DNA of 64,000 bases, taken from the NCBI GenBank assembly GCA_900299395.1, contig OMJO01000012.1, positions 623-64,622 of the forward strand, given 5' to 3'. Both the position numbers and the translations under genes were made by a program. The DNA comes from a bacterium (lineage in GTDB: Bacteria; Patescibacteriota; Saccharimonadia; Saccharimonadales; OMJO01). Positions 1,909 through 57,909 of the stretch are shown here, piece by piece (the first letter of the stretch is position 1; the number at the start of each line of letters is the position of its first letter). The notes beneath the pieces are model-generated. The model had not been told where the DNA came from. It did no database searches and saw only the letters and a program-made list of their open reading frames with translations.

Positions 1909-4900
1909 TTATCTCTGAACAATGTGGTAGCTAAATGTGTACGTCTTCGATGCTGTCAGCGCATTGTACGAATTCAGGTCAAAGGTTGTAGTCGTAGACG
2001 TGTAGTAATACTGTGGGAAGTTTGATGAAGCGGGCACCGTATTTGGTGTAATAGCAATGGTTGGTGCCGAAACATACGCAACTGCAAATGTGACGGTTGC
2101 CTGCGCACCTGCTGCCGGTGTTGTACCAGTGTTAATGGTGATCAACCCAGCCGTGTCATTACCATTAATAGTGACTGTACAGCCAGTGCCACAGTTGGCG
2201 TTTAGTGCAACCGTGGTTGTCCCGCTGGCATTCGCAGACAAGATATGTCCAGCAGCTTTAAGTGTACCGTTGAATGTTGCGTCGCTATTAACGGTTAACG
2301 CACCCCCGGCTGCCGCTGAACCAATAGTCACATTAATGGTAGATCCCGCCAAACCGGCATTACCAATGTTGATATTTAGTGTCTTGCCACTGGCAACTGC
2401 GCCAGTACCAATATTGATAGTCTGATTCTGCGTAGACTGACCTATGGTAATCGTGCCCGTGCCTGTCGTGGTGCCAAGCGTCAGGGCGCCGGTGGTTGTA
2501 TTAGCTGAAAGCAAGGCGGTACCAGCAGTGCTTTGTACCACGAAGGCCGTTGATGAGTCTGCCGAGACAACGACCGTATTGTCACTCGCTGCGGTTAATC
2601 CGTTACTTACCAAGTTACCTGCCTCGTCTAATGTCAGGTGAGACGAACCACTGTTAAGGTTTAAAGTTGTGAAGTACACGCTACGGAACTGCGTCGAAAC
2701 ATTACCCAAGTCAACACCAGACAATGCTGTACCCGCACCAGAACAACTTGCATCAGAACATTTTACCGTTCGTAAGTTGGCGCTTGTATTGTCGTAGTAG
2801 CTAATAAATGGCTGCCCGTCACTTGGCAAGACAATTGATGTGTACTGACCTACATCATTGGTTGTGTCGATGCTTGCAGCGGAACCACTCGTACATGTTG
2901 AGTTACTGCACTGGTAAACCTTCAGATCACCATTTGTAAGGTCATAGTAGCTTATGACCGGTTGACCACTTGTGCCAACGACCACCGAAGTATAATAACC
3001 AACAGAACCAGTTGAGTCTAGGGTTGTTTTTGTAGCACTTGTACAGGTAGTGTTACTACACTTCGCTATTCGTAAGTTACCGTTTTGAGCGTCGTAGTAG
3101 CTTATGACTGGCTTGTCATCACTTGGGATTGCCACAGAGTTATACTTTCCAATTATCGAAGATGAGTTGTCGATAGTCGTAGTCGTATTACCGCTAGCAC
3201 AAGTTTTAGTACCACAGCTTACAGCAAGGAGATCGCCATTAGTGGAGTTGTACACCGAGAGGAATGGCAGGCCAGAGCTATCTACTTTAATGGCATGTTC
3301 AAGCCCTGATGCTACCGATAATGTGGTAGTGTTACCACTATTACAAGCCGTATTACCACATTTGATGATATCGATGCCCCCATAGCCATAAGATATGACA
3401 GGTAAACCATCTGAGCCAATAGCTATGTCTTGATAGCCCTTCCCGTGGAGAGAGTCGATCGCTACCGGCGACGAGTTACCACTTGAGCAAGCGGCGTTTC
3501 CACATCGTACGATATACAAGATATCATTATTGTTGTTACCACTGTCTGTTGAGTATACAACGTATGGTTTACCTGTTGGGTCCACTGCAATCGAGCCAGA
3601 CAAGAAGTTAGAAGCTGGCGTCGTCAGGCCAGATGCAATTGTCGTTTTGGTAGAACTGCTACAGGTAGCGTTACTACACTTCGCCACTTTTATAGCGTTA
3701 TTAGTTACATCCGTGTAAACAATTATCGGTAAGCCGTCAGAACCTATTGCAGTTTTAGTATATTGGCCGACGGTGCCCGTGGTATCTATATTAGTAAACG
3801 TGTTTGTCGTACTTGCCTGACTTGGCGCAAAGCCTGGTCGAATAACATTGTTGGCCGTATCAGCAACCAGCAAGGTGGTAGAACCGGCAGCATTCTGAAT
3901 TTGGAAGGCAGTTGTACTCGTTCCCTGCAGATTTAGCACACCTGCGCTTGTGCCAGTATTAGAGTTTGTCATCTGATACTGGAAGCCGTTGATTGAACTT
4001 GTTGAAGTTTCGGCAGAAGTTGGGTTCTTGGCTAAGAAGCTACCACTAAGCCCACCGCCAATGGCATTGACACAGTTTGCCGAAGCCGCCGTAGTACATA
4101 TGGTCCCCGTCTCTGCTGGTAGGGTTAGCGTAAAGTTACTTGCCGTAGAAGTAGGTGCAATGGTTATTGTGCCACCACCAGTGGTACCAAAGGCCAGCTG
4201 AGAACTTGCTGTTCCCGCCTGACCAATAACAACTTTCGAGTTAACAGTATCCACGTTGAGGATCTGCGTACCTGACGCATTTTGTACCTGGAAGGCGGTA
4301 GATGTGTCAGCAGTTGGTGCTACAGTACCATCACCAGTAATACCAGTATCATCAAAGGTGGTAGCAGCTGTTGTACCAATTAAACCTGTCGTGGCCGGAC
4401 TTGTTGCAACCGCAGTTCGATAGATCTTGTAGCTAACGGCACCACTGACTGTACTCCAGGTAATACGTTGATAGTTTGCCGTAGTCAGCGTCGCAGCACC
4501 ATTGGCGCTTGTTGTAGTACCTTGGCTAGATGCAGCCGTGGTAGCACCACTGGCGGTGACTGCTACTACTTTGTATCCCCAGGTAGATGCACCGGTTGTA
4601 CCGACGGTCGTAACTGTCGGTGTGCCTGGTGTTGCAAGGTTTGCAATAGTAAGACCACCCTGCAAGCTACCAGCTACACTCAAATTATTAGCTCGCAGAT
4701 TACCCTGCACCCACGCGTTACCCGCTACGCCAAGATCCGCGGCAGTTTGGATAGACCCGGCAGCATCGAAACCGCCTTGGACGCTAGCTGACCCGCTGAA
4801 AACGGTGTTGCCACTGACCTGCAAGCCACCAAGCTCGGCAGTGCCAGCCTCAAGAGACTGCGTATATGTACCGCCCATGTCATATATCTGCAGCAAGTTT

Positions 4901-7900
4901 GCACTAGCAGATGGGACATAGGCGTAGCGGCCATTAAGGACAATCGCGTACGGAATACTGCCCGTCGTTATTGTCCCGCCACTGAGTAACGTAGGATTTG
5001 CCGGGTTACTGACATCATATATGGTGATTGTATTTGAAGTCGCATTTGCCACATATGCATAGCGACCCTGTACGGTTAGACCTCGTGGGTTCGTTCCGGT
5101 ATTCACCGACCCAACAACGAGTGGCGTCGCAGGATTCGATACATCAATGACCTGCATAGTGCTGGAGGTAAAGTTAGTAACATACGCGTAGCGTCCCTGG
5201 ATGGCAACCCTATACGGTGTAGCTCCAACCGTTACGGTGCCTAACAGCGACGGGCTTGCGGCAGTTGCAATGTCGTAGATTTGCATAGTACTCGTGCCGG
5301 TATTCACAACATATGCATATCGTCCGGCAACATTTAAGCCAATAGGTGAACTTCCCGTACCCGTAGATATAACTCCTACGGCTATTGGGCTAGCCGGGTT
5401 AGAAATGTCGTAGACCTGGAGTGTATTGGAGGTTGTGCTAGACACATATGCGTAACGCCCCTGCACAGCTAATCCACGTGGGGCAGTACCCACCGCAACT
5501 GATCCAGACAATGATGGAGTTGAAGGCTTACTGATATCAAATACCTGTAAGGTGTTTGATGTTTGATTGATGACGTAGGCATATTTATCTGCAACACTCA
5601 CTGCGGTAGGTGTGGTGCCGGTAGAAACACTACCAACTACTGCAGGATTGCTAGGACTACTCACATCTATCACCTGTAGTGTTGCGCTCGTCTGGTTGGT
5701 TACGTACGCATACCTGCCCTGAACTGCTACGGCGTTCGGGAACGACCCAGTCGCAACAGTGGCTGCCGCACTAGACGGGGTCGTACCACTAACATACAAC
5801 TGACCTGTTGGCGTACCATTGCCCCCAATCACCAACTGCAATGCAGAATTCGAGTTGTTTGCGCTTGTGTATGCCGAGTTACTGCTCGGTGGTGATGTGG
5901 ACCCAGCCGTTATACTCCCCACATCTGTAAAAGAGTTTGTCTGCACAGTAGTCAGGTAGACTTCTGTACCAGTTGCTGTACTTCTATAGACTTTATACGC
6001 AACAGCGCCAGAAACTGCACTCCAACTAACATCAATTGTCTTTAAGGTAGTATCTGTCGCCACTGATGTCTCCGTAGACGCCGCACTCTCTCCACCCGTC
6101 CCATCTATGGCCGTGATTTTGTAGTAATATGTCGTGCTTGCAGTAAGGTTGCCCCCGGCAGTAATAGATGCACCGTTACCCGTATAACCTGTATCGTTAA
6201 ATGTCGTACCTGTTGTCGTTCCAACCAAACCGATAGTACTACCACCGACTGTTCTATATATCTTGTAGTAAAGTACCGATCCCGAGGAAGGTGTAAAGGC
6301 TGTCCACGAAAGTGCATTATAGTTAGTACTGCTGAGCGTCGCATTACCTGTTGCGGTTGTGCCCGCAGCAGATGCGGCAGAGTTACCAATTGTGCCTACC
6401 GCCTCAATGATATAGCTGTAGCTCGTTGCACCTGTCGTGCCTGTGGGTGTTACGGTTGGCGTTGCGTTCTGACTTGGTTTAGTGGCAGTTGGCGTAGGGG
6501 TCGTTACCGCGCTAAGTGCAGAGAATAAGTTTATCCTATTATTGGTACTGTCAACATTCATCAGTGAAGCACTGCTGGAGTTTTGGATTGCAAACTGACT
6601 TGTTGAGTTTGTGCTGTTGCGGAATAGGTTTGCATACGTAGACTGAAGACCATAGCCAGTTACACTGGTCCTAGTCCCAATGTTTACGGCGTTGTTTGCT
6701 GAGTCAACACTTAGTACGTAGTTGTTAGTGGTCGTATCAATAACCGTAAATGCCGTCGATGAAGGAGACTGAACAGATACGTTGTTACTGGAATCCGAAC
6801 TAAGGGCGTTACTGGTAAATTTGCCCGAGGAATCAAGGTACAAATGCATCCCCGATTGCCCACTATTTATTTGAACTACATTGATATTAGCAAATGGATA
6901 GTTCCCGCCAAGGCTTACCCCGCCACTCCAGCTAGAGGTTGAGGCGGCATAACAGGTGTAATCAACACAGTTAAGGACGCCCATCCAGTCATTACTTCCG
7001 GTACTTGTACCAGCATAAAAGGCAATAGATGGGAAGCCAAGGTTATTAATAATAGGTGTGCCCTGTTGACCACCATTCGATTTTGCAGATAAAAACTCTG
7101 TTTGGGTGTTTGCCAACGAACCAGTCGTTGCAGGGTCACAAGATTGACTTCCACAATGATAGATACCTACACCGCCAGCACCAGTATTATCCTTATACAC
7201 AAATACTGGCAACTGGTCACCACCAATCATACCATCTAGATTACTAGTTGCCACCTGGCCAACTGGACCGGCAATTTTAGGCGTGTTATAGGTAGCACAA
7301 CTCGCAACCTTACACTTCACAATAAAGAGTTGATTGTTACTAGCAACCGCGCCAATAATCGGCAGTCCATCACCACCAATCATTATTACTGGTTTGATCA
7401 GGTCGTACGTGCCACCCAACGTTGCATAGTACGAGATGAGTGTATTGGTGTGTGAAGTACAGTTAGCATCATTACATTTTGAGATGAACAGGCCGTCTTT
7501 CCCGTTAGCGCCGTTTGTGTTGTTCTGAGCCGAAACCAAAATTGGATATTGATCTGATGGAGTAATCGCCACCGAAATCTGTCCAGTTAGTGAATGATTA
7601 TTGAGCTCCGGCTCACTCGATGTCCAGGGCTGCACGCTGGTAGATGTCCTGCAAGTGTCGGCATTATTGCCTGTGTTGTTGGTGCAGCGAATCAGTTGAG
7701 GTCTGTTGTTAGTACTTGAGATATTGATAATGAGCGGCATCTGGTTAGGCCCCATAATCATATCCATATTACCGCCTGGAGTAGTAGTCGAGGCCAAAAC
7801 AGTAAACGAGTTACCCGCTGTACAGTCGTACGAGCCACAGTTCCATGCAACAAGTTTGTTCGGGGTCACACTGTTGTCTTTGAACACTATCACCGGCAAA

Positions 7901-10900
7901 CCGTTATTGGTCCCACCCGTCGCGGTTACAACACCAGTCGTGCTCACTTGAGTATAGGTGGGGATGTTTGAGGTACTCAACGTATCTATTTGTGATCCTG
8001 TAGTACTACAGTCCGTCTTATTGCACTTAGTGACCACCAACCAGTTACTGGGTCCGTTTGTCGCTACAGCAACCACCACCGGTAAGCCATCGTTAGGGAA
8101 CACCTGGCTAAAGGCCCCGTTATTCATACTAAGTGTAGGGAATTTTTGATATTGGAAGTAACTTGCACCTTTTGTGGGCTGCACAACAACAGGACTAGCA
8201 GCAGCCTGAAGCACTCCGTTGTAACCATACTGAGAAGAGTTATCGATCGTATTAAGCTGTATGAGATTAGCGCCAGAAGCACTTTGTAGTATAAACGCCC
8301 CCGCGTTGTCAGTTTGCGCGCGAAAGGCAACATCACCCATGACCTGCATCCCATTGCGTATTGAAACTCCCTGCAAAAAGTCAGACTGTCCTGTAACACT
8401 GAAGCGGCCTACGATATTAGTATTGCCAGCTGTCAGACTACCGCCTAGCCCATTATCATTCATGTTCTGACCAGACACTCCCACGAGATCAAGAGAAGCG
8501 CCCACCTTAATTCGTGCCGTAGACGTATATTGAGTTGTACTGACTGCACTGCTTGTGTAACCGCCAAGGACATACATGTAGCCGTTAGCAGCTGCATAAC
8601 CAAAGTTTGAAACACTGTTTGTGAGTGCGTTGGTGGAAGTAGTAAAACTGGCCGATCCAACGCTACCATTTGAATTGAATGGCGCATAGTAAACAGTGTT
8701 ATTACCCGATGTAGCAGAGCTACCGCCACCAAAAACGTACAGATTGCCACTTAGTGCAGCAAGACCATGGTATGCCCTCCCAGCTGGAAGAGAAACCGCG
8801 TTGGTTGACCAACTACCTATTGTGCCATCATCATTAACTGTTGCGTAATAGATGCTTGTTTGTGCAGCGCCTGATGTATTCAGTCCACCTACGTAGTAAA
8901 TACGACCATTGGCATATATTGCCCTTCCGCCAACCAAACCAGCACCCACAGGTAGCGTGTTCGAGGAAGCGGTGAACGAGCCGATGGTGCCATCTGGGTA
9001 GATTTTAGCGTATTGGACAACTGTAGTTCCGGTAGAAGCTGCGGGGGTCTGGGTTGCACAACTGTTACTAGCACAGGTGCTCCCCCCAAGAATATAAATG
9101 TAGCCCTTTGCAGTTATAACTGAACCTCCTGCAACCGCGGTGTTAAGCCGGTATGAAGTGGTGTACCAAGATGTTATATCACCGTTGCTTCCAAGTTTAC
9201 CAATCTTTGTCGAGTAGCTTGGTGTATACGGGCCAGTGCCGCTAGTATCATCAAAGCCACCGCTAATATATACATAGTTTCCGAATGATGCAGCTCCAGG
9301 ATAATATGCTCTACTACCATATAATGACAAGCTAGCTGAAGTGTTCGACCAGGTACCAATTGTCCCGTTTGCCTGTAGCGTAGCAAATGATACTATCGAA
9401 TCGTCCGACCCACTTACTCCCCCGACAGAATATATGTATGGGCCACTTACAAATGTGCTCGAACCATAGCGTGTCTGCAATAATGCCTGTGTAGTTGCCC
9501 AGGCCTGGGTCTCCGCATATCCTGCGCCGTTCACGGTAAGCACTGCGTTCGACGTGTCTAGATTAAATAACTGAGCACCGCTGGAATTCTGTATTTGGAA
9601 TCCATTTGCACCATTTGCCGGCTGTATCAAAACACCACTGGTTCCGGCCTTAATCGTGGTTTGCGATGTCCCGATAGATGAACCGATATTAACCGTTGTG
9701 CTCGAACTAGCGGTGGTGTTGTTGCCGATGTTGATTGTTTGCGCAACTGCGCCTGTCGTGTTACCGATTTGCACAGTGGAAGCGATCCCGGTATTGCCTA
9801 AACTCACAGCTGCACCACTGGTATTTACAAGCAAGTAGTTGTTGCCGGCTGCATTTTGTATCTGGAAGGCGGTGGTTGAATCAGTACTATTTTTTGCTAA
9901 TACGGCGCCGGTAGCACTAACACCAAGAACGCTGGTGCCGCTGCTGTTTTGTACTTCAAAGACGTTGGCAGTACTCTGATTTGTCTGTGCTTTGGCGATA
10001 AGTGTTGCGACGGTATTGAGGTTCGAGGTGTCTGTTGTTTGGAAGAAACCCGAGGCATTAGAGGCACTCTGTCCAAGTACACCATAGCCACCACCACCAA
10101 CACCCTTTACACCACCACCGACACCAGCATACTGCGTACCAATCACTCCGTACGAACTACTGTTCGAGGTTGTACCAACAATAGCGTTACCACTCAAGTT
10201 AGTTGCGTTCGTCGTACCGCCCTGTGTATCTACGTTGAATATAGTAGTCCCGCCCGCATTGTTTATATTAAACGCTGCTGAGGAATCTGCAGAATTTTGC
10301 GATGTTACGGCACCCGTCGCCCCTATTCGGAACATGTTTGAAGCACTGGAGTTTTGTACCTGGAAGATGTCTGCCGTTTGTCCAGAGGCACCACGTATCA
10401 AGCCGCCCACATACCCAATGTTTGCACTCTGGATTGCGAAGTTACCGTTTGTCTGGATGCCATTGCCGTTTTGGATGTAATTACCTGAACCACTCGATGC
10501 CGAACAACCACTAAGACTACACACGACATTACCATTTATTCTGAGCGATCCCGAGTTGTCCAAGTTCACATCCCCGTTAACATCCAGGGCATAACCAGTT
10601 GGGTATTGGTTTATTCCAACCCGCTTATTGACAGTATCTACAACTAGAACGTGACTTGTACCTGCAGAATCATTAACGCTAAAGGCACTTGTTGAGTCTG
10701 ATGAATTTTGCAAAGTAAGAGCGCCTGTTGCGGAAACTCCAAAGAGATTTGCACCCGCACTGTTCCGTAGATTCAACAGGTCTGCCGTCTGCCCGACTGC
10801 ACCCTTTATGACTCCACCTACATACGTTGCATTTGCAGACTGTATCGAGAAGTTGGCGTTCGACTGAACACCAGTTGTGTTCTGTATGAAATTATTTGCA

Positions 10901-12588
10901 CTACTGCTTGTTCCAACACAACCGTCAATGGTACAAATTACGGTACCACCTATCCTAAGCGCCGAACTTGCCTCAATATTGGCATCACCGTTGATGTCTA
11001 ACTTGTAGTTAGGGACTATCCCTATACCTATTCGATTGTTCACAGTATCCGCAGTGAACAAATTTGATGTTCCCGCAGCATCTTGAATCTGGAAGGCTGT
11101 TGTAGAGTTGGAAGAGTTTTGTGCCAAAACTGAACCCGTTGCACCCACAGCTAAAACGTTTGTCCCATTGGATACTTGTAGGTTCAAAAGGTTAGCGGTC
11201 TGCCCGACAGCACCACGTATGAGACCAGCAACGTATCCGGCGTTGGCACTCTGAATCGCAAAGTTGGCGTTCGACTGAACACCAGTTGAGTTCTGTATGT
11301 AAAACCCGCTGGACCCGCTGGCTGCACAACCAGAAGCAGTACAAATAACAGCCCCGCCGATACGCAAAGCACTAGTACCGACTATGTTCACATCGCCATT
11401 TACGTCCAGTTTGTACGATGGGTTCGAATACCCAATACCAATGCGCTGATTAGTGGTATCAACATTGAGCACCGACGTCCCTGATGCGTTTTGAACTTGG
11501 AATCCAGTCGTGGAGTTAGTCCCAGTTCGGAAGGCACTTACCCCGTTGCCACCGACCGTAAATAGCGCTGAGCCATTGTAGTCCTGTGCTTCAATCAAAC
11601 TACCTGTTTGTGCAAATTCACCTTGGATAACAATACCCTTATTGGTTGAAGTGTTCGTTGCTACCAGCAGTTGGGCAGCGTTATCCACTGTAGTTGGTAC
11701 ATTTATGGCAAGTTTATTGTCTGAGCTTGTGTTATTAATACCGATGTTGCCAGTGGCCGTGATGGTCATTCGAGCAGTGTTGTTGGTCAAGAAGTTGAGG
11801 CTATTGGCGTCTGTTGTGCCAAGGTTTGCTGCGGTTGCAAAGGCGTTGCCGCCTTGTAAAAAGGCATTGCCACTTCCGCTGGCACACGATGCAAAACTAA
11901 GAGTTCCGGCACCATCTGTCGTTAGACACTGGTTGGCACTCCCTGTGTTTGAAGGCAGCGTGAAGGTACTTGACCCGCCGTTGGCTCCTTGTAGAATTGT
12001 GCCGCCAATCTTCAAAACACTTGTCAATGTCATGCCAGTAAACTGTGGTGATGCAGTTTTTGACAAATCTTGTGGCAGCGCTAAAGCGTTGGCGCCAATC
12101 AGATTCAGAACATCCTGAGTTGAAAGTGTACTTCCTGTCGTGGCGACCGTCTGATAGCCCTCACCGTTATAAAATCGCAATTCTCGAGTGGCAGAATCGA
12201 CATACAGCTGACCTAAGATGGCGGTTGTGGGCTGGCCGGTTGGGTTGATTACCAACCCTTGGTTTGTCTCGAGCACCCCATTGATAACTACTTTATCGGT
12301 ATTGTCGACCTTTAGTGGCGTGGCCACATCGGACAAGCTTCCAAGATCGACGTCTTGTGATTTAGTTGTAGCACCACTCTTTCCAGAGGTAGACTTCTTT
12401 CCTACTACGCTGCGAAGCAGCAATAAACCGATGATAAGGCTGAGAATAAAGGCAACTACAATAATAACCCACTTCCAGGGGATACGCCTCCGAGGTGGTT
12501 TAACAGGGGCGGGCTGGGTGGTGGAAGTTTGTACCGTTGGTGGTGCGTCTAGCGCAACAAATTCGTTGCGCCACTGCTGTTCTTCCAT
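1909..12588 (-). CDS. giant (3,559 aa) membrane-anchored modular surface protein; candidate adhesin
   Basis: Uninterrupted 10,680-nt ORF. Short Pro/Arg-rich N-terminus and a single TM helix WKWVIIVVAFILSLIIGLLLL (aa 38-58). The rest is Thr/Ser/Gly/Asn/Ala-rich and built from the repeat arrays listed separately, plus three FN3-like modules (YKIYR / YKVYR / YKIYR strands). Confidence 0.85.
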   Translation of the reverse strand: MEEQQWRNEFVALDAPPTVQTSTTQPAPVKPPRRRIPWKWVIIVVAFILSLIIGLLLLRSVVGKKSTSGKSGATTKSQDVDLGSLSDVATPLKVDNTDKVVINGVLETNQGLVINPTGQPTTAILGQLYVDSATRELRFYNGEGYQTVATTGSTLSTQDVLNLIGANALALPQDLSKTASPQFTGMTLTSVLKIGGTILQGANGGSSTFTLPSNTGSANQCLTTDGAGTLSFASCASGSGNAFLQGGNAFATAANLGTTDANSLNFLTNNTARMTITATGNIGINNTSSDNKLAINVPTTVDNAAQLLVATNTSTNKGIVIQGEFAQTGSLIEAQDYNGSALFTVGGNGVSAFRTGTNSTTGFQVQNASGTSVLNVDTTNQRIGIGYSNPSYKLDVNGDVNIVGTSALRIGGAVICTASGCAASGSSGFYIQNSTGVQSNANFAIQSANAGYVAGLIRGAVGQTANLLNLQVSNGTNVLAVGATGSVLAQNSSNSTTAFQIQDAAGTSNLFTADTVNNRIGIGIVPNYKLDINGDANIEASSALRIGGTVICTIDGCVGTSSSANNFIQNTTGVQSNANFSIQSANATYVGGVIKGAVGQTADLLNLRNSAGANLFGVSATGALTLQNSSDSTSAFSVNDSAGTSHVLVVDTVNKRVGINQYPTGYALDVNGDVNLDNSGSLRINGNVVCSLSGCSASSGSGNYIQNGNGIQTNGNFAIQSANIGYVGGLIRGASGQTADIFQVQNSSASNMFRIGATGAVTSQNSADSSAAFNINNAGGTTIFNVDTQGGTTNATNLSGNAIVGTTSNSSSYGVIGTQYAGVGGGVKGVGGGGYGVLGQSASNASGFFQTTDTSNLNTVATLIAKAQTNQSTANVFEVQNSSGTSVLGVSATGAVLAKNSTDSTTAFQIQNAAGNNYLLVNTSGAAVSLGNTGIASTVQIGNTTGAVAQTINIGNNTTASSSTTVNIGSSIGTSQTTIKAGTSGVLIQPANGANGFQIQNSSGAQLFNLDTSNAVLTVNGAGYAETQAWATTQALLQTRYGSSTFVSGPYIYSVGGVSGSDDSIVSFATLQANGTIGTWSNTSASLSLYGSRAYYPGAASFGNYVYISGGFDDTSGTGPYTPSYSTKIGKLGSNGDITSWYTTSYRLNTAVAGGSVITAKGYIYILGGSTCASNSCATQTPAASTGTTVVQYAKIYPDGTIGSFTASSNTLPVGAGLVGGRAIYANGRIYYVGGLNTSGAAQTSIYYATVNDDGTIGSWSTNAVSLPAGRAYHGLAALSGNLYVFGGGSSATSGNNTVYYAPFNSNGSVGSASFTTSTNALTNSVSNFGYAAANGYMYVLGGYTSSAVSTTQYTSTARIKVGASLDLVGVSGQNMNDNGLGGSLTAGNTNIVGRFSVTGQSDFLQGVSIRNGMQVMGDVAFRAQTDNAGAFILQSASGANLIQLNTIDNSSQYGYNGVLQAAASPVVVQPTKGASYFQYQKFPTLSMNNGAFSQVFPNDGLPVVVAVATNGPSNWLVVTKCNKTDCSTTGSQIDTLSTSNIPTYTQVSTTGVVTATGGTNNGLPVIVFKDNSVTPNKLVAWNCGSYDCTAGNSFTVLASTTTPGGNMDMIMGPNQMPLIINISSTNNRPQLIRCTNNTGNNADTCRTSTSVQPWTSSEPELNNHSLTGQISVAITPSDQYPILVSAQNNTNGANGKDGLFISKCNDANCTSHTNTLISYYATLGGTYDLIKPVIMIGGDGLPIIGAVASNNQLFIVKCKVASCATYNTPKIAGPVGQVATSNLDGMIGGDQLPVFVYKDNTGAGGVGIYHCGSQSCDPATTGSLANTQTEFLSAKSNGGQQGTPIINNLGFPSIAFYAGTSTGSNDWMGVLNCVDYTCYAASTSSWSGGVSLGGNYPFANINVVQINSGQSGMHLYLDSSGKFTSNALSSDSSNNVSVQSPSSTAFTVIDTTTNNYVLSVDSANNAVNIGTRTSVTGYGLQSTYANLFRNSTNSTSQFAIQNSSSASLMNVDSTNNRINLFSALSAVTTPTPTATKPSQNATPTVTPTGTTGATSYSYIIEAVGTIGNSAASAAGTTATGNATLSSTNYNALSWTAFTPSSGSVLYYKIYRTVGGSTIGLVGTTTGTTFNDTGYTGNGASITAGGNLTASTTYYYKITAIDGTGGESAASTETSVATDTTLKTIDVSWSAVSGAVAYKVYRSTATGTEVYLTTVQTNSFTDVGSITAGSTSPPSSNSAYTSANNSNSALQLVIGGNGTPTGQLYVSGTTPSSAAATVATGSFPNAVAVQGRYAYVTNQTSATLQVIDVSSPSNPAVVGSVSTGTTPTAVSVADKYAYVINQTSNTLQVFDISKPSTPSLSGSVAVGTAPRGLAVQGRYAYVSSTTSNTLQVYDISNPASPIAVGVISTGTGSSPIGLNVAGRYAYVVNTGTSTMQIYDIATAASPSLLGTVTVGATPYRVAIQGRYAYVTNFTSSTMQVIDVSNPATPLVVGSVNTGTNPRGLTVQGRYAYVANATSNTITIYDVSNPANPTLLSGGTITTGSIPYAIVLNGRYAYVPSASANLLQIYDMGGTYTQSLEAGTAELGGLQVSGNTVFSGSASVQGGFDAAGSIQTAADLGVAGNAWVQGNLRANNLSVAGSLQGGLTIANLATPGTPTVTTVGTTGASTWGYKVVAVTASGATTAASSQGTTTSANGAATLTTANYQRITWSTVSGAVSYKIYRTAVATSPATTGLIGTTAATTFDDTGITGDGTVAPTADTSTAFQVQNASGTQILNVDTVNSKVVIGQAGTASSQLAFGTTGGGTITIAPTSTASNFTLTLPAETGTICTTAASANCVNAIGGGLSGSFLAKNPTSAETSTSSINGFQYQMTNSNTGTSAGVLNLQGTSTTAFQIQNAAGSTTLLVADTANNVIRPGFAPSQASTTNTFTNIDTTGTVGQYTKTAIGSDGLPIIVYTDVTNNAIKVAKCSNATCSSSTKTTIASGLTTPASNFLSGSIAVDPTGKPYVVYSTDSGNNNNDILYIVRCGNAACSSGNSSPVAIDSLHGKGYQDIAIGSDGLPVISYGYGGIDIIKCGNTACNSGNTTTLSVASGLEHAIKVDSSGLPFLSVYNSTNGDLLAVSCGTKTCASGNTTTTIDNSSSIIGKYNSVAIPSDDKPVISYYDAQNGNLRIAKCSNTTCTSATKTTLDSTGSVGYYTSVVVGTSGQPVISYYDLTNGDLKVYQCSNSTCTSGSAASIDTTNDVGQYTSIVLPSDGQPFISYYDNTSANLRTVKCSDASCSGAGTALSGVDLGNVSTQFRSVYFTTLNLNSGSSHLTLDEAGNLVSNGLTAASDNTVVVSADSSTAFVVQSTAGTALLSANTTTGALTLGTTTGTGTITIGQSTQNQTINIGTGAVASGKTLNINIGNAGLAGSTINVTIGSAAAGGALTVNSDATFNGTLKAAGHILSANASGTTTVALNANCGTGCTVTINGNDTAGLITINTGTTPAAGAQATVTFAVAYVSAPTIAITPNTVPASSNFPQYYYTSTTTTFDLNSYNALTASKTYTFSYHIVQR
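2721..3786 (-). repeat. coding repeat array B: 7 x ~50-aa units, each with a C-x4-C pair (predicted 7-bladed propeller)
   Basis: aa ~2935-3290. The units contain VAKCSNATC, IVRCGNAAC, IIKCGNTAC, AVSCGTKTC, IAKCSNTTC, VYQCSNSTC and TVKCSDASC. Each is preceded by DGLP/SGQP-[IV]ISYYD-like strands. Confidence 0.6.
4881..5736 (-). repeat. coding repeat array: 7 x ~41-aa LVIVD-type repeats (beta-propeller)
   Basis: aa ~2285-2570. Seven units of the form G[RK]YAYV.N..S.TLQV[IFY]D[IV]S.P..P..VG.V.TG..P..[LV]. This matches the LVIVD repeat signature. Confidence 0.65.
6936..8106 (-). repeat. coding repeat array A: 7 more divergent units with paired Cys (C-x4-10-C)
   Basis: aa ~1495-1885. The units contain VVTKCNKTDC, VAWNCGSYDC, LIRCTNNTGNNADTC, FISKCNDANC, FIVKCKVASC, IYHCGSQSC and VLNCVDYTC. 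They are interleaved with GLPV/GLPI strands. Confidence 0.55.
8511..9471 (-). repeat. coding repeat array: 6 Kelch-like blades
   Basis: aa ~1040-1360. Six units carry the double-Gly strand (YIYSVGG, YVYISGG, YIYILGG, RIYYVGG, NLYVFGG, YMYVLGG), each followed by a ...DGTIGSW...-type strand. Confidence 0.6.
10190..11511 (-). repeat. coding tandem repeat: ~3.2 copies of a ~137-aa (~411-nt) unit
   Basis: aa ~360-800. Unit: TTxFQ[VI]Q[ND]AxGTSxLxVDTxNxR[IV]GIG...YKLD[VI]NGD[VA]N...LRIGGxVICTxxGC...[FY]IQNxxGVQSNANF[AS]IQSAN..YV[AG]G[LV]I[RK]GAVGQTA[ND]LLNL. Copies start near aa 360, 496, 633 and 769 (the last is partial). Confidence 0.65.
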
Positions 12589-29901: not shown

Positions 29902-31323
29902 CTACCCCACTACCCTATACGCAATCAGACCAAGCACAATTAACACAATAGCTGACCAAAACCCCCACCTGACAGCACTCGCATAGAGTTCCCCCGTTTG
30001 ATGAGGTTTTGTTTGCGCTGCCAGTTTTTCTGCCAATTCCCTGTTCGTCTGTTGTAGCGAAGGCTGCAGCTGCTCGGCATACTTCTGATACGTACTTGGC
30101 ATAATGGCACCAATTGGCACTGGGCTAGAGGTAACTGAATCACTATCTTTGATCTCGTGTCTCTGTTCAAATCGTTTTTCAATCGGTTCACCGTGCTCCG
30201 CTGCCTCAACAACACGTTCTAGCACCTGCTCACTTGGACGCTCCTTTTCGACCGTAGTTTTTACTGTTTGCGTATCTTGTTCCTGTGCTGGCACAGCTTT
30301 CTCTACTTGTTTTTCAATACCTGCGGCGGAGTTCTCGGAAGTACTGCGAGTTTCTCGCGTAACCGTATCAATCTGACGGTCCGCAACAGGAGTTCGTTCT
30401 GCGATTTTCTCAGATTGAAGCACTGCTGGGGTATCAGGGATGGCGCGTTTAACTTCTTTTTTCAGTTCCTCAACGGTACGCTCCTGTCTTTTTTTGATCT
30501 GGTGCTTCAGTTTACGCGTCTGATCTTCGCGCTTTTCATCGGCGCGTCTCTGTACATCACGCTCGCGAATACGCTCTTCTGCAAGCCGTGCAGGAGTAGG
30601 CGTTAACTCGCTCACTTCTCGGTGTTGCATATCTTCATAGTGCAAGATAGGCGTAACCATCTCAGTAGCTGATACGGGAAATTGTCTATTATCGACAGAT
30701 CCAAGTGGAGGCAAATCTTCTGTGGGACCTTCCCAGCGGGGAGGTATAATCGGAGCGACTTCTTGCTGTTCATGTGTCACCTGAAGAAAAGGTAATGGCT
30801 CTTCATCGTCGTGAGAAATAATAGTCTCCCCGTGATAACCCCCATCACTCTGGTCATCATGAGACGTTTCAGAAGTGCTATTTTGTTCATGCTGGGTTTC
30901 GTACACAAGGTCAGACTCTCTACTGTCAGGAGGTTCAGGCGCAACCGACTCTACTTCTCGATGCTCGGGCATCCCCGTAGAATCTTCTAGGCCCCGTTCA
31001 GAATTTTCATCAAAACCCAGAAACTGATCAAGTGAAGCAGTTTCTACCGGCAATTCGGTATCATTGCCCTGCTGTTCGATGAGTTCGGCACTTGCAATGC
31101 TACCGAACAACTTCCCCCATAGTCGACGGAAGCGACCTGTAGACGGATCTTTTTCTAGAGTAGTATCACCCTCTTTTTTACGGGCTTCATCTTTCTCTAG
31201 TTTCTCTGTTCCAAGAAGCTCGTGCAGACGATCTTGAAATGAAACCAAAAAACCCTGCTTTCGCTCGATAGCTGGTGAACTCTTTTCCTCGTTATTGGTA
31301 ACGGGTGGTCGACTTTCTTCCAT
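29902..31323 (-). CDS. tail-anchored, highly charged low-complexity protein
   Basis: 473 aa, E/R/K/Q/T-rich. A single C-terminal TM segment WGFWSAIVLIVLGLIAY. Starts 24 nt after the infB stop on the same strand. Confidence 0.55.
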   Translation of the reverse strand: MEESRPPVTNNEEKSSPAIERKQGFLVSFQDRLHELLGTEKLEKDEARKKEGDTTLEKDPSTGRFRRLWGKLFGSIASAELIEQQGNDTELPVETASLDQFLGFDENSERGLEDSTGMPEHREVESVAPEPPDSRESDLVYETQHEQNSTSETSHDDQSDGGYHGETIISHDDEEPLPFLQVTHEQQEVAPIIPPRWEGPTEDLPPLGSVDNRQFPVSATEMVTPILHYEDMQHREVSELTPTPARLAEERIRERDVQRRADEKREDQTRKLKHQIKKRQERTVEELKKEVKRAIPDTPAVLQSEKIAERTPVADRQIDTVTRETRSTSENSAAGIEKQVEKAVPAQEQDTQTVKTTVEKERPSEQVLERVVEAAEHGEPIEKRFEQRHEIKDSDSVTSSPVPIGAIMPSTYQKYAEQLQPSLQQTNRELAEKLAAQTKPHQTGELYASAVRWGFWSAIVLIVLGLIAYRVVG

Positions 31324-36004: not shown

Positions 36005-37522
36005 CTAGAAACTGAACTGCAGAGCGGGCTTGTTTTGAGTCTCAGAGCTAGCGTAGCCACCCACATCGCCACTATTACTCTTCAGACCGATACTATAGAC
36101 GCCGTCCTTGGTAATCCAGGTTGGGTCAAGCGTGATCGTTACCCATTGCCCCGACTTTATGGCCCCAGCCCGACCTAACACAACACTGCTTATTGCGGGC
36201 GCATTGTTCCACGTAACTATACTGTCTGTCCAGTCGTTATTGTCGACCCTGTAAACTGTACCGCCATCAGCACTGGCGTCGGTTGCATATAACCTGAGAC
36301 TTACGGTCTTGGGCGCAGCTTTAAGACCAGAAACTTTGAATTTAAGGTAGCTGTTGCGGTTAAATTGCGTACCGCAACTCTTGGCGCAGCCTGTAATATT
36401 ACTTACACGCAGTCGATTGAGTGTATCAAAATTCTTACTGACGTAATTGCTGCCGTCTTTTACCATTGCGTCGTCAGACGGCACTACCGTTATGGGCGAT
36501 AGCTGGTTTAGGGTACTGACAGTTACTGAGCTTGTTGCAGTTACCCCTGTTGCATCAAACGCTTTGGCGACAATGGTATGCTGCCCATCGGCAAATGTCT
36601 TACTATCGATAATCGTCCCATATGGGCTGATGTTTGCCTGGCCTACCATTGTTGCATCGACGTAGAACTCAACCCGGTTGATACCTGTCACCGAAGATGC
36701 ATTGGCCGTAATACCGGCTATACCGGTCAGCGTCGCGTTATTCACTGGACTCGTAAGAGAAACTGTCGGTGGGTTCGCGACGTTTACAGTAGCCGAACTA
36801 GAGTTAGCCGCATTGCCAGATGTGTCGTAAGCACGAGCCGTTATCACGTAAGACTGGTTACTAAATGCAGCGGTATCCCATGAATACGAGTATGGTGACG
36901 TTGTATCACTGCCGAGAAGAGTCAGCCCTGCGTAAAATTCAACTTTGCCGATTCCTCTTGCATCAGTTGCATTTGCCGTCAGGTTAACAGTGACGGTTAC
37001 GGTGCCCCCGACAGGGCTAGTCAAGCTAACAGTTGGTGGTGTCGTATCCGCCAAACAGTTACTGCCATCGCCTGTCGGCACACATGCAGTATCTGTTACA
37101 AGGAGCACCTTATCGACACTAACATCTGGCTCCCGCCCGTTTACTACTACCGAATATGTGCCAGCCGAGAGAGCGAGGTCAACTTTGCTAGTGGTAGTCC
37201 CATTTTTGTAATCTACCCACGTCCAGCTATTTGCCGAAATAGCGGTATTGTCACCCACGACAATACCACAATAGCCAGATCCTACATCGACAGTCACCGA
37301 ATTGTTAGTCGTGTCTGGGGCATTCAAACGAACCCACAAACGATAGGTACCAGTTGCCGGAACACTGACGCTGCTAACAGTGCTAGCACCATAGGAGGTT
37401 GTTGGCGCAGCGCAGGCGGCGCGGGCAGACCTGCCCGACAGTAGTACAAATACAAATAAACCCACGGACATAACCGCAGCGGCATAAAAACGTATCGAAC
37501 TTCTTTGTCTGGCTTTTGGCAT
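36005..37522 (-). CDS. secreted protein: N-terminal CBM-like domain, two Ig-like domains, C-terminal DNRLRE/CBM96-like domain
   Basis: Signal anchor MPKARQRSSIRFYAAAVMSVGLFVFVLL...ARA. Two PPTVSLTSPV...VEFY...YSWDT / VEFYVD Ig-like repeats. The C-terminus has SYLKFKVSGL...VTWNNAP. I chose the start at ATG 37522. Confidence 0.7.
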   Translation of the reverse strand: MPKARQRSSIRFYAAAVMSVGLFVFVLLSGRSARAACAAPTTSYGASTVSSVSVPATGTYRLWVRLNAPDTTNNSVTVDVGSGYCGIVVGDNTAISANSWTWVDYKNGTTTSKVDLALSAGTYSVVVNGREPDVSVDKVLLVTDTACVPTGDGSNCLADTTPPTVSLTSPVGGTVTVTVNLTANATDARGIGKVEFYAGLTLLGSDTTSPYSYSWDTAAFSNQSYVITARAYDTSGNAANSSSATVNVANPPTVSLTSPVNNATLTGIAGITANASSVTGINRVEFYVDATMVGQANISPYGTIIDSKTFADGQHTIVAKAFDATGVTATSSVTVSTLNQLSPITVVPSDDAMVKDGSNYVSKNFDTLNRLRVSNITGCAKSCGTQFNRNSYLKFKVSGLKAAPKTVSLRLYATDASADGGTVYRVDNNDWTDSIVTWNNAPAISSVVLGRAGAIKSGQWVTITLDPTWITKDGVYSIGLKSNSGDVGGYASSETQNKPALQFSF

Positions 37523-37619
37523 ACTGCTTATTCTTACTCTTACAGCGTAGCCTCTCGTAAATAGGCTGTCAAACCAAAAGAGCCCTGTCATAACACAAAA
37601 CTGGGCTATACTGAGTAGC

Positions 37620-37981
37620 ATGCAGAAACGTACGATGGACATTGGTAGCGTGGATGAATTTATTGCTGGTTATCCCCCAGCCGTGCAGGATATCTTGCAA
37701 AAAGTCCGCACTACTATCAGAAAATCCGCCCCTGACGCACAAGAGCGAATTTCGTACGGTATACCCACCTACACGCAAGGACGTAACCTAGTCCACTTCT
37801 CTGGTTATGAAAAACACCTGGGCTTCTACCCAGGTGCCCAAGCTATCGCTGACTTTGCCCCTGAACTGAAAAATACGAGACATCAAAGGGTACCGTACGC
37901 TTCCCACTAGATAAGCCGATCCCCTACGATCTCATCGATAAAATTACTCGTTACCGAGTCCAAGCCGAGCAAAATAGATAA
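37620..37981 (+). pseudogene. DUF1801/YdhG-like gene interrupted by a 1-nt frameshift in an A5 run
   Basis: Frame 1 ends ...FAPELKNTRHQRVPYASH* at 37910. Shifting by one A at 37869-37873 gives ...LKKYETSKGTVRFPLDKPIPYDLIDKITRYRVQAEQNR* (stop 37979-37981), the expected family C-terminus. Confidence 0.7.
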
Positions 37982-38573: not shown

Positions 38574-38884
38574 TTTGGCACTTTTGCCGAGTTGACCTGC
38601 TAACGAGCAAAGCTCATTACTCCGTCAACTCTCTTGGGAAAATGCGGTGTCGACTACATTCGTCTTTTTCAGTCATCGTACATTAGTACGCTCCCTTCAA
38701 AAACTCACTGTCTCCTTGCACTTTCCTCAAGCAAAATTCCCAAATCGGGTTTATTGCCTGATTGATGTCCATGTTTCGCACGGATTTGAGATGTTAACAA
38801 ACGGTGTGTAACTATTCGTCACACCAATAACTAGTCAATGCACTTCTTCTCACAAGCCCTAAATGTTCTTGTGAGAAGACGTAA

Positions 38885-41970
<3,086 letters not shown>

Positions 41971-42388
41971 TTACGATTAGTAAATCGCCCCGTAGGGACC
42001 TGAAAGGTCCTGCAAGGGTGGTTTACTAGTGCAATTGACTAGTTATTGGCAAAACCAATAACCAAGCGCAGTCAAGCTGCGCCGATATGCAGTAAAACTG
42101 CATATGCCGTTTGTCTTATTTAACATTCACACTTCCATATAGTGTGAATATCATCTCAAATTTCTTCTAGTTGTTAAGTTACAAAACCCAAGGCATCCCA
42201 CAATGACAGATAACTATAACCCTGAGAGCTTGAGTTTACGCTAGAAGTTTTGTGCGACTTTTTCGCACGACCTCGTGCCTAAACTCAAGCAGCCAAGTCA
42301 GTATACGCGTTATAACAGAGGTAGTCAAGCCTATTACGCTGTAAAAGTTGCTACAATTTAACTGTTTAGAATTTTCGTGTTTTCAACT

Positions 42389-42821: not shown

Positions 42822-44287
<1,466 letters not shown>

Positions 44288-44517
44288 AAAAAAGAATCTG
44301 TCTTAGCATTCAGTCGAACAGATTACCGAAGTAATCAAATTACTGACTTTTGTACTTTCAAAACAGTTCAAATGAACTGACGTTGATCGTTCGCCTTGGT
44401 TGGCGAACGGTTAACGCTTTGACCAAAGGTCAAAACATTAACTTGCACTATTCAATTTTTAACGTTCGTTATCGATTTCGAGGACACTAATACATACCCC
44501 ACGAAATGACTCCGACT

Positions 44518-49216: not shown

Positions 49217-49285
49217 CTTCGAAAGCTTGTTATTGGAGGGTGTTTCATGATTGAATAAGCATTAGCAGTAAGAGGGCGTGTGGCA

Positions 49286-50848
49286 ATGTTCAAGAAACTT
49301 CTCAGTAACCTACCTTTCAACCCTAGTCTGATAAACCAGGTTAGTTTTTACGCCAAGCGCGTCCACAACGAAAGTACGGTTCGCAAAACTGGCCTTATAA
49401 TGCTAGTTTTGGCTATGTTTGTGCAACTTTTCGCTGTTATTTCCCCGCCTCAAGCATCAGTTTCTGCCAGCCCGGACAATGACCTTATTAATGGTGGCTT
49501 CGCAAACCGCGATCAAGCAGTACTTCACTGTCTTAATAATAATGAGGACTACATCAAGATTCTGGCCCACTACAACATCACCTGCACTGACGTCGCCAAT
49601 GCCGCAACAGTCACCTTGCGATCAACAGATTACAACCGAAACCTCTACTCTATGGGTCGAAAGCCTTACGGTCTGGCCGGCGAGCAGCCCGTGAATATCG
49701 AGGGAGCGAACGGTGGACGCACCTGGCTTCGCTATCTGTGGGGGTGGGACAAAAACGGTGTCAGCACTTACCAGGCTTTGTCGGGCACTAATAAAGACGG
49801 GCTTCGCTTCTTTATCCTCTATAACTGCGGGAACTTGGTGTTCATCGGTATACCACCAGTTAACCCACCTCCACCGCCTCCACCACCAACTGAGCTAAGC
49901 TGCACCAATCTGGGGATGAGTGTTACGGACGGGTCTCGCGTACGTCTTGGTTCAAAGGTATCGCTCAGAGGTCAAGCTAGTGGCAAAAACATTCGGTTTG
50001 GGCAAACTGTTAGCATGTCATATGAATACGTCAACACAGCCAATGGCAAAGTTGTTGGCAAAGCGTCGACGGGTACTATTGGATTTGTGAACGGGGTGGC
50101 AAATGATCCTGCTTCACATGTGTTCACTGCAAATACCGCTGGGCAATATGTATTTAAACTGACGGTATACGACGGCAGCAAAGTCGTAAAAGGTAGTGCG
50201 GCCGGCGACTGCGTAAAGCGCATTACTGTGCAGAAAGCGTGTGATGAATCTTCAAGCATCAAGAACATCGACGAGTGTATCGATATACATAAAAAAGCCC
50301 GCAATATTACGCAGAACATAGCCGATGCAAATGGCACGACCGCCAAGCCTGGTGATGTCATCGAGTACACCCTCATTGCTGAAAACACCGCGAATGTTGA
50401 AATACCTAAGTTTGTCGTCCAAGAAAACGTCAGTGATATCCTCGATTACGCCGATATAACTGACTTCGGTGGCGGTAAACTTACCAAAGGCAACCTACTT
50501 ACCTGGCCCGCTACTTCAATCAAGGCTAAGTCGAAGTTAACAAAGGTATTCAAGGTAAAAGTTAAGAACCCTCTTCCTTCTACCCCTCGTTCAACGTCCG
50601 ACCCTGGGCACTTCGATATGACGATGACCAATGTGTACGGTGATACAGTGACCATTAAGCTTCCTCCTCCGATCACGAAGCAAACAGAAATTGTCACCCA
50701 GTCCCTTCCAAACACGGGTCCTGGTGAAACCTTAGCTGCGGGCTTTGGTGTGACCGCAATCGTTGGCTACTTCTTTGCGCGCAGTAGGTTGATGGCCAAA
50801 GAGTTAGATGTGGTTCGCAAAGAATATACAACGAGTGGGGGTTACTAG
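49286..50848 (+). CDS. LPXTG-anchored cell-surface protein with a poly-Pro linker and a DUF11-like repeat domain
   Basis: N-terminal signal anchor. A PPVNPPPPPPPPTE linker. TAKPGDVIEYTLIAENTANV, a DUF11-like strand. The C-terminal sorting signal is LPNTG, then a hydrophobic stretch, then RSR. The ATG at 49286 has AGAGGG 7 nt upstream. The ORF track starts at GTG 49280. Confidence 0.8.
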   Translation: MFKKLLSNLPFNPSLINQVSFYAKRVHNESTVRKTGLIMLVLAMFVQLFAVISPPQASVSASPDNDLINGGFANRDQAVLHCLNNNEDYIKILAHYNITCTDVANAATVTLRSTDYNRNLYSMGRKPYGLAGEQPVNIEGANGGRTWLRYLWGWDKNGVSTYQALSGTNKDGLRFFILYNCGNLVFIGIPPVNPPPPPPPPTELSCTNLGMSVTDGSRVRLGSKVSLRGQASGKNIRFGQTVSMSYEYVNTANGKVVGKASTGTIGFVNGVANDPASHVFTANTAGQYVFKLTVYDGSKVVKGSAAGDCVKRITVQKACDESSSIKNIDECIDIHKKARNITQNIADANGTTAKPGDVIEYTLIAENTANVEIPKFVVQENVSDILDYADITDFGGGKLTKGNLLTWPATSIKAKSKLTKVFKVKVKNPLPSTPRSTSDPGHFDMTMTNVYGDTVTIKLPPPITKQTEIVTQSLPNTGPGETLAAGFGVTAIVGYFFARSRLMAKELDVVRKEYTTSGGY

Positions 50849-57536: not shown

Positions 57537-57567
57537 TAAAAAACCGCTCATATCGAGCGGTTTTTTA
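57537..57567. terminator. bidirectional rho-independent terminator between rplT and rnpB
   Basis: aaaaaaccgctc-atat-cgagcggtttttt. Confidence 0.7.
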
Positions 57568-57569
57568 GT

Positions 57570-57909
57570 GCTAGATTATCCGTAAGCCGGGTTCTGTTTT
57601 AGCTAACCATCTATCTAGTTGGCCGATTACTCGACAAATCAAGCGGATTGACGATGTGCTCTGGCGGGAAACCTTTGTGAGTACATCTCCTTGCAGCAGA
57701 CAGGGTTTACCATTCTCGTCAGTCACCTGACAAGATTGTGGGCTCTTACCCCACTCGTTTCACCCTTACCTAGACAAGCTAGGCGGTATCGTTTCTGTGG
57801 CACTTTCCCTAAGGTTACCCTCGGTTGCCGTTAGCAACTGTCTTTCCCTACGCTGCCCGGACTTTCCTCCTGTCCGTATCCGAACAGGCGGTTAGCCGAT
57901 AACCTAGCA
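57570..57909 (-). ncRNA. rnpB: RNase P RNA (bacterial type A)
   Basis: The minus strand contains GAGGAAAGTCCGGGC (P4 5' strand) and ACAGAACCCGGCTTA (P4 3' strand). The P1 pairing ctaggttatc/gataatctag closes the molecule. Confidence 0.9.

Follow-up and report, generated by a model that had tools for sequence, protein, structure and literature searches.

The described systems closest to the one treated here are seven-bladed propeller lectins of bacteria. The PLL and PHL lectins (PropLec7A; IPR007132; PDB 5c9l, 5mxg, 6rfz, 8q81-83) are seven-bladed proteins made of units of about 50 residues, with several sugar sites between the blades, and these sites rely on the stacking of tryptophan (PMC6943638). 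CV39L and BP39L make up a separate class, PropLec7C (IPR016285; NF052350, NF052349, NF052348; PDB 6gxs, 6gxr), have L-fucose and mannose as ligands, and are associated with the recognition of hosts, and near-equivalent blades are typical of multivalent propeller lectins (PMC11186620). Among the Saccharibacteria, the cultured members of which are epibionts on Actinomycetota, PilX2 of strain TM7x carries a PLL-like heptabladed propeller and is a proposed lectin-like adhesin; its deletion halves host binding, and the attachment of TM7x is modulated by host cell-wall glycans and free sugars (PMC11623550). Here, we describe an array of seven cysteine-bearing repeats in a giant protein encoded on contig OMJO01000012.1 of a Saccharibacteria genome, within a stretch of 64,000 nucleotides (nt) that is called the window below. 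The array is predicted to form a propeller that resembles these lectins mainly at the level of the fold.

The repeat array and its predicted fold

The array spans window positions 2721-3786, corresponding to amino acids (aa) 2935-3290 of a giant minus-strand open reading frame (ORF) that is rich in T, S, G, A, and N (Table 1). A plus-strand reading of the same interval was rejected, as that strand has stops throughout; the repeat gene lies on the minus strand. The original prediction of seven repeats of about 50 aa, each with a C-x4-C motif, holds for units that measure 46-58 aa, but the lysine or arginine that it placed ahead of the first cysteine is missing from two of the seven (units 1 to 7 have K, R, K, S, K, Q, and K), and the long consensus that accompanied it describes units 5-7 well but is a loose match to units 1-4. 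Unit pairs share a mean identity of 40% (range 27-51%), and the mean local alignment score of unit against unit is 84.7 (55-139), compared with 23.5 ± 4.9 (maximum 46) for shuffled units. The motif is strongly enriched in the protein as a whole, with 17 occurrences observed versus 0.49 expected from the cysteine content, and the further C-x4-C sites that had been reported outside the array were found again at Cys 416, 552, 690, and 1172.

An alignment of 99 sequences, comprising the array region and 98 homologues, served as input for AlphaFold2. The resulting model of this canonical copy has a mean pLDDT of 89.7 and a pTM of 0.88 and shows 28 beta-strands arranged as seven groups of four, and the best Foldseek matches are likewise seven-bladed. 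The seven-bladed propeller suggested earlier from the repeat count is upheld by this model, from which we regard it as nearly certain that the array folds in this manner. Counted along the chain, the fourth strand ends with the first cysteine in each unit, and the second cysteine comes three residues ahead of the next strand. The assignment of strands to blades follows from the character of their residues: YTSIAIG, with its small and hydrophobic residues, would be the innermost strand of a blade, and the threonine-rich TITTVD strand would be the outermost, fourth one. A blade would then consist of three strands of one unit (YTSIAIG, LPVISYYD, and DLKVAxC) and the first strand of the following unit, and the last blade is probably completed by an extra strand at the N-terminal end of the domain (aa 2930-2935). 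This 3+1 arrangement would site the C-x4-C motif in the loop between strands three and four, at the outer rim of each blade.

The same protein contains a second, diverged propeller of seven units that was absent from the original prediction, with the homologous units at aa ~1490-1880. All seven of its units align with those of the canonical copy at 27% identity (BLASTP E 4e-16), and its cysteine pairs are 1522/1527, 1584/1589, 1635/1646, 1705/1710, 1759/1764, 1812/1817, and 1874/1879, the pair in blade 3 being spaced as C-x10-C. AlphaFold2, run with a mixed alignment, gave a pLDDT of 72.8 and a pTM of 0.79 for this copy, and the first 22 Foldseek matches of the model in the PDB are all PLL or PHL lectins. 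The second copy alone found only 2 relatives in a word-indexed search, which points to a fast-evolving version of the same domain.

Comparison with propeller lectins and known families

For the canonical copy, the first 15 places in the Foldseek search against the PDB were taken by the Photorhabdus lectins PLL, PLL2-5, and PHL (E 4e-13 to 1e-10), with TM-scores of 0.62-0.68 when normalized to the length of the query and 0.71-0.78 when normalized to that of the target, at 13-16% identity. Six-bladed sialidases, the GH145 hydrolase BT3686, and the CV39L lectin (E ~3e-9, TM-score up to 0.64) ranked below them. The PLL and PHL lectins, the top matches for both window copies, share with the window domain the seven blades, the tandem units of ~48-50 aa, the near equivalence of the blades, and their nature as secreted bacterial proteins. 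In contrast, sequence homology to the window domain is undetectable, as neither phmmer nor a profile search of the PDB brings up a PLL or PHL chain at E<=10, and the conserved tryptophans between the blades of PLL, which stack on sugars by CH-pi contacts, have no counterpart in the canonical copy. The cysteines of the PLL family bridge monomers, whereas the window domain has one cysteine pair per blade, and PLL and PHL are free lectins, whereas the window domain forms part of a giant protein with a membrane anchor (PMC6943638 for the PLL-family cysteines).

Among known families, only CV39L, from a class that is also seven-bladed, gives any signal at the level of sequence. The NCBIfam model CV39L_fam_lectin was matched by 9 of 33 family members (best E 7.4e-9) and beta_propeller_lectin by 8 of the 33 (best E 1.4e-7), but the window domains and their relatives all score below the cut-offs of NF052350 and NF052348. 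CV39L and BP39L are not known to carry a cysteine pair in each blade. The window domain is a member of neither the PLL/PHL nor the CV39L/BP39L lectin family, and the family that it represents is a distant relative, mainly at the fold level, of these seven-bladed bacterial lectins.

Nor did other resources supply a name, in agreement with the earlier statement that the repeat could not be assigned to a named family: all Pfam and NCBIfam models fell below cut-off on the region, and no PDB chain is related to it by sequence. WD40, Kelch, RCC1, FG-GAP, NHL, YVTN/LVIVD, PQQ, TolB, and DUF346 gave no Pfam match at E<=1 on aa 2915-3310, and searches of the PDB by phmmer, by profile, and with the consensus unit returned chance matches only, to LolA (8cgm) and similar proteins. 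PHROGs gave nothing meaningful for the repeat region, the viral structures of BFVD gave generic propellers in phage fibre-like proteins and nothing else, and a literature search found nothing relevant on the repeat motif, DUF1936/PF09151, or C-x4-C propellers. Asp-box/BNR membership was considered and rejected, as a regular-expression search found no S-x-D-x-G-x-T-W in either array and the BNR_4 matches are under cut-off. The only recurrent Pfam signal is a stretch of 14 residues, NGDLKVxxCxNxxC, that falls on positions 17-30 of the 34 in DUF1936 (PF09151). The window domain reaches 22.6 bits against a cut-off of 25 with no single stretch significant, and the homologues sum to 30-46 bits, passing only as seven weak pieces added together. 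Similar matches to the PyrI_C, AZUL, and metallothionein models indicate a resemblance to cysteine knuckles and not family membership.

Size and distribution of the family

A word-indexed search returned no fewer than 1,459 relatives. The top match covers 98% of the query at E 6e-156, and all the relatives carry the name 'hypothetical' or plainly wrong automatic labels. An exhaustive search of 1.84 billion cluster representatives (clusters at 50% identity) yielded 14,720 members at E<=1e-3, 9,533 at E<=1e-10, and 3,503 at E<=1e-30, ranging from stand-alone proteins of 350-600 aa up to giants of 4,000-7,000 aa. Among GTDB species representatives, 479 loci were confirmed. These include candidate phyla radiation (CPR) groups (Peribacteria, Magasanikbacteria, Doudnabacteria, Uhrbacteria, and Saccharibacteria), other bacteria (Nitrospirota, Actinomycetota, Gammaproteobacteria, Omnitrophota, Myxococcales, Chloroflexi, and Acidobacteria), the cultured Legionella species L. 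waltersii, L. brunensis, and L. quateirensis, and archaea (Woesearchaeota, Altiarchaeota, Thermoplasmatota, and Nitrosopumilus). A restriction to particular lineages, which had been put forward as something to check, does not hold, as the spread covers many bacterial and archaeal phyla.

The consensus of the unit is TTVD-S-x-G-x-V-G-x-Y-T-S-I-A-I-G-x-D-G-L-P-V-I-S-Y-Y-D-x-T-N-G-D-L-K-V-A-[HK]-C-G-N-A-A-C-[ST], with individual positions conserved across phyla at 98% (L), 87% (G), 86% (Y), 85% (D), and 85% (K), and the window array, with its seven units of this consensus, falls within the definition of the C-x4-C propeller family. PKD, DUF11, Laminin_G_3, and SLH domains accompany the propeller in family proteins.

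Several observations concern family members outside the window. In 51 of about 265 family proteins, the last C-x4-C is followed directly by a C-terminal tail of the form C-x-[PN]-[YN]-[WF]-x-R-R-COOH, as in FCLNNWSRR and FCVPYFRRR (homologues P0015, P0037, P0047, P0110, and others); this aromatic-basic tail may be a sorting or anchoring signal. Homologue P0090 ends in the NCBIfam 'flexitail' putative surface-protein domain (aa 386-499, E 9e-20), which fits a cell-surface location. Legionella waltersii ATCC 51914 encodes a protein of 758 aa (L077:2911-5187, plus strand) with a signal peptide and about 14 units, the equivalent of two propellers, and is a tractable organism for work on the family.

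Cysteine pairs and the architecture of the giant protein

The proposal of one cysteine pair per blade proved to describe the family at large, in which the pairs are nearly invariant. Both cysteines of blades 1-6 are kept in 97-99 of the 99 aligned homologues; for blade 7, 76 sequences have both, 16 have neither, and 2 have a single one. A hidden Markov model (HMM) of the unit, applied to 265 family proteins, delineated 2,380 units, the majority of which (2,043) have C-x4-C, while 32 have two cysteines at another spacing (x2 to x11), 245 have none, about 16 have one, and 44 are unaligned in the motif region and were not scored. The cysteine-free units are mostly the last of their domain, where no outer strand follows. 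Attachment of heme through CxxCH or C-x4-CH was rejected, there being no histidine after the second cysteine.

A hydrophobic N-terminal segment is present in 86 of 101 full-length homologues, and the signal peptide of the L. waltersii homologue is of the Sec type. Together with the membrane anchor of the giant protein and the partner domains listed above, these features indicate that the family proteins are, as read from their sequences, extracytoplasmic. In the giant protein, a basic stretch, KPPRRR, precedes the hydrophobic anchor, and by the positive-inside rule the N-terminus would be inside the cell and the remainder of the protein outside. All 42 of its cysteines occur in local pairs 4-14 residues apart (e.g., 221/235, 2831/2839, and 3466/3470), which suggests a fully disulfide-bonded, extracellular protein.

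The C-x4-C propeller is about 270 residues from the C-terminus. Separate from it, the LVIVD-repeat propeller in the same protein (Table 1) shows a multi-propeller, adhesin-like architecture, and weak Kelch-like Pfam matches occur outside aa 2915-3310. An identical copy of the 3,559-aa protein is present on three public metagenome contigs. Toward its N-terminus, three modules of ~136 aa (window ~10099-11721, minus strand; aa ~290-830) each end in ...LRIGG.V.C..[SD]GC, with cysteines at 416/421, 552/557, and 690/695, and match no Pfam or PHROG family.

Possible function and alternatives

The joint reading that we favor, by a modest degree, is that the domain is a disulfide-stapled, seven-bladed propeller serving as a lectin-like binding module of a long Saccharibacteria adhesin; the lectin-like or adhesive role of the propeller, judged separately, stands evenly balanced. 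In this proposal, the propeller would be rigid, its seven blades near-equivalent, and the long adhesin would hold it well away from the membrane, close to its distal end. There it would bind a repeated surface ligand of the host, probably a glycan of the cell wall, with low affinity but high avidity, on behalf of this epibiont. Multivalent glycan binding seems the most likely function given the near-identical blades with their conserved loops and the precedent of PilX2, which comes from the same phylum and likewise presents a PLL-like seven-bladed propeller on a surface appendage, although the sequence family differs (RCC1 repeats in PilX2), PilX2 is joined to a pilin rather than to a giant membrane-anchored protein, and the C-x4-C repeat has not been described in it. 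It is from these lines of evidence that we infer glycan binding and a role in host attachment. A bolder extension, which is conceivable but doubtful, is that the family constitutes a fourth, previously undescribed family of seven-bladed bacterial and archaeal lectins, with a tryptophan-free site formed by the D-S-x-G-x-V-G and D-x-T-N-G-D loops and one disulfide per blade, and that it is a main host-glycan recognition module of epibiotic CPR bacteria and DPANN archaea, with Nitrospira, Legionella, and others using it as well.

Several points weigh against the lectin-like adhesin. TM-scores of 0.6-0.7 at 13-16% identity might arise between compact seven-bladed propellers that have no function in common. 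The NCBIfam lectin matches of the family fall well short of the curated thresholds of 350 and 200 bits, the single bit score available being 29, and the repeats could have inflated them, and the window's two domains match no NCBIfam lectin model at E<=0.1. There are 0 tryptophans in aa 2915-3310, and, as the PLL sites are tryptophan based, any sugar site here would have to be built differently. Clustering of the ORFs around 80 homologous loci identified no neighbor genes conserved across phyla and thus backed no function; the recurrent clusters were propeller genes, their own out-of-frame ORFs, and synteny internal to Nitrospira (e.g., glycine dehydrogenase). Finally, the disulfide in each blade is itself inferred, if probable, and no Dsb- or VKOR-like genes were found in the 64-kb window, a result that is uninformative for the whole genome.

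Two other functions for the propeller were weighed. It might be a module that binds no glycan, acting as a rigid structural or protein-binding platform and as one of four propellers in a long, protease-resistant surface fibre. Propellers commonly serve as protein-protein platforms, the same protein holds the LVIVD propeller, the weak Kelch-like region, and the second copy, and the tryptophan-based sugar sites of the PLL type are missing. However, the nearest structures and the sole weak sequence links are lectins, and the D-S-x-G-x-V-G and D-x-T-N-G-D loops are strongly conserved across phyla in every blade, which argues for a repeated functional site rather than a mere scaffold; we consider a purely structural or protein-binding role unlikely. 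Less likely still is an enzymatic role, as a sialidase/GH145-type glycoside hydrolase or lyase that would act on the cell-wall polysaccharide of the host. The four-stranded blades are shared with such enzymes, and Foldseek matched sialidases and GH145 BT3686 (probability 1.0) as well as a rhamnose-glucuronate lyase at E values of 1e-10 to 1e-6, alongside weak BNR_4 matches (E 8.8e-5 to 3.6e-3) that are all under cut-off. The TM-scores of the sialidase, GH145, and lyase matches are nevertheless lower (0.45-0.64), and some of these structures, the sialidases among them, are six-bladed. Enzymatic propellers have divergent blades around one active site, whereas the blades here are near-equivalent and have no blade-specific conserved residues that could form a single active site; moreover, neither array has an Asp-box motif, and catalytic domains are absent from the relatives scanned.

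Apart from the function of the propeller, the role of its cysteines allows more than one explanation, and the original prediction had named both a disulfide and a metal site. A disulfide within the C-x4-C loop would act outside the cell as a staple of the outer hairpin in each blade, and it is favored because the cysteines are gained and lost as pairs, their spacing varies, the pair is lost in terminal units, and the proteins are extracytoplasmic. The alternative, to which we give little credence, is a metal knuckle in which C-x4-C would be half of a Zn or Fe site, as in zinc ribbons or the Zn domain of PyrI, the regulatory chain of aspartate carbamoyltransferase; a neighboring histidine, an adjacent blade, or a second propeller would have to complete such a site. 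The window motif does recall the zinc-ribbon knuckles of DUF1936 and PyrI_C (PF02748), in which a beta-hairpin is followed by C-x4-C in the pattern K-V-x-x-C-x-N-x-x-C, and the motif-level matches to DUF1936, PyrI_C, AZUL, and Metallothio_6, with the summed DUF1936 scores of homologues above cut-off, are consistent with a metal site, as are the histidine that precedes the first cysteine in 50% of family units and the automatic name of one homologue, 'aspartate carbamoyltransferase regulatory subunit' (JGI). That histidine, however, is found in 0 of the 7 window units, and the Pfam matches span 14 of the 34 model positions, with the window domain below cut-off. Zinc ribbons draw four ligands from two knuckles, whereas each blade here has two cysteines only and lacks a second knuckle, and two thiolates are too few ligands. 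The window motif also sits in the blade of an extracellular propeller, and structural thiolate-metal sites are unusual in extracytoplasmic proteins. Other spacings are tolerated in the 32 units noted above, and the loss of the pair in the last unit, where a hairpin staple would be pointless, suits a staple better than a metal site.

Both the propeller fold and the concept of an adhesin that binds through a multivalent propeller are established, and a specialist would find the present case unsurprising. The novelty lies in a very large family for which no curated model, structure, or literature was found and which combines a cysteine pair per blade with a lack of tryptophan. With at least 14,720 clusters at 50% identity, it is among the larger unannotated families and a good target for annotation and lectin screening. 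If it is a lectin, it would provide a new sugar-recognition scaffold, an annotation for thousands of 'hypothetical proteins', and a concrete candidate for host cell-wall recognition by Saccharibacteria and other ultrasmall epibionts; if it is a structural propeller only, the gain would be annotation. The design of one disulfide per blade could also serve engineers of stable propeller scaffolds.

Organism and window context

The 16S rRNA gene of the window carries, at 43411-43432, the target of the TM7-905 probe without a mismatch, and the FtsZ encoded in the window shares 74-80% identity with proteins that bear the names Candidatus Saccharimonadales, Saccharibacteria, or Patescibacteria. Together, the probe match and the FtsZ identity indicate a Saccharibacteria (TM7) genome. 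The genes neighboring the giant ORF are housekeeping genes (parA, parB, ileS, nrd, ftsZ, and ftsA), and the window also carries a bacterial rRNA operon.

Table 1. Positions of the repeat units, propellers, and other features in the window
Feature	Amino acids	Window position (nt)	Strand	Detail or basis
Giant ORF, holds the repeat array	3,559 aa	1909..12588	minus	ORF list and translation
Putative N-terminal membrane anchor IPWKWVIIVVAFILSLIIGLLLL	~36-58	12415..12483	minus	Direct sequence reading
Second, diverged seven-unit propeller (predicted)	1467-1900	6889..8190	minus	BLASTP, AlphaFold2, Foldseek
LVIVD-repeat propeller	~2240-2600	4789..5871	minus	Pfam PF08309, E 3.8e-32
Predicted seven-bladed beta-propeller, canonical copy	2930-3282	2743..3801	minus	AlphaFold2, Foldseek
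Unit 1	2935-2980	3649..3786	minus	CSNATC at nt 3661-3678, Cys 2971/2976
Unit 2	2981-3038	3475..3648	minus	CGNAAC at nt 3487-3504, Cys 3029/3034
Unit 3	3039-3086	3331..3474	minus	CGNTAC at nt 3343-3360, Cys 3077/3082
Unit 4	3087-3134	3187..3330	minus	CGTKTC at nt 3199-3216, Cys 3125/3130
Unit 5	3135-3186	3031..3186	minus	CSNTTC at nt 3043-3060, Cys 3177/3182
Unit 6	3187-3236	2881..3030	minus	CSNSTC at nt 2893-2910, Cys 3227/3232
Unit 7	3237-3286	2731..2880	minus	CSDASC at nt 2743-2760, Cys 3277/3282
16S rRNA gene		42822..44291	minus	Rfam

Some further features of the window are worth recording. Three ORFs, at 51434-54292 (minus strand, 952 aa), 29902-31323 (minus strand, 473 aa), and 49280-50848 (plus strand, 522 aa), have no Pfam match at E<=1e-5. 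The 23S rRNA match at 38880-41973 (minus strand) covers 3,094 nt against a model of 2,925 positions, and the roughly 170 extra nt may be an insertion of the sort often seen in CPR rRNA genes. An ORF of 219 aa at 57927-58586 (minus strand) joins a pterin-4a-carbinolamine dehydratase to an RNase H-like domain (RVT_3) and adjoins the RNase P RNA at 57567-57907. A likely surface protein of 545 aa, encoded at 36005-37642 (minus strand), combines Big_7 Ig-like domains with a CBM96 carbohydrate-binding module.

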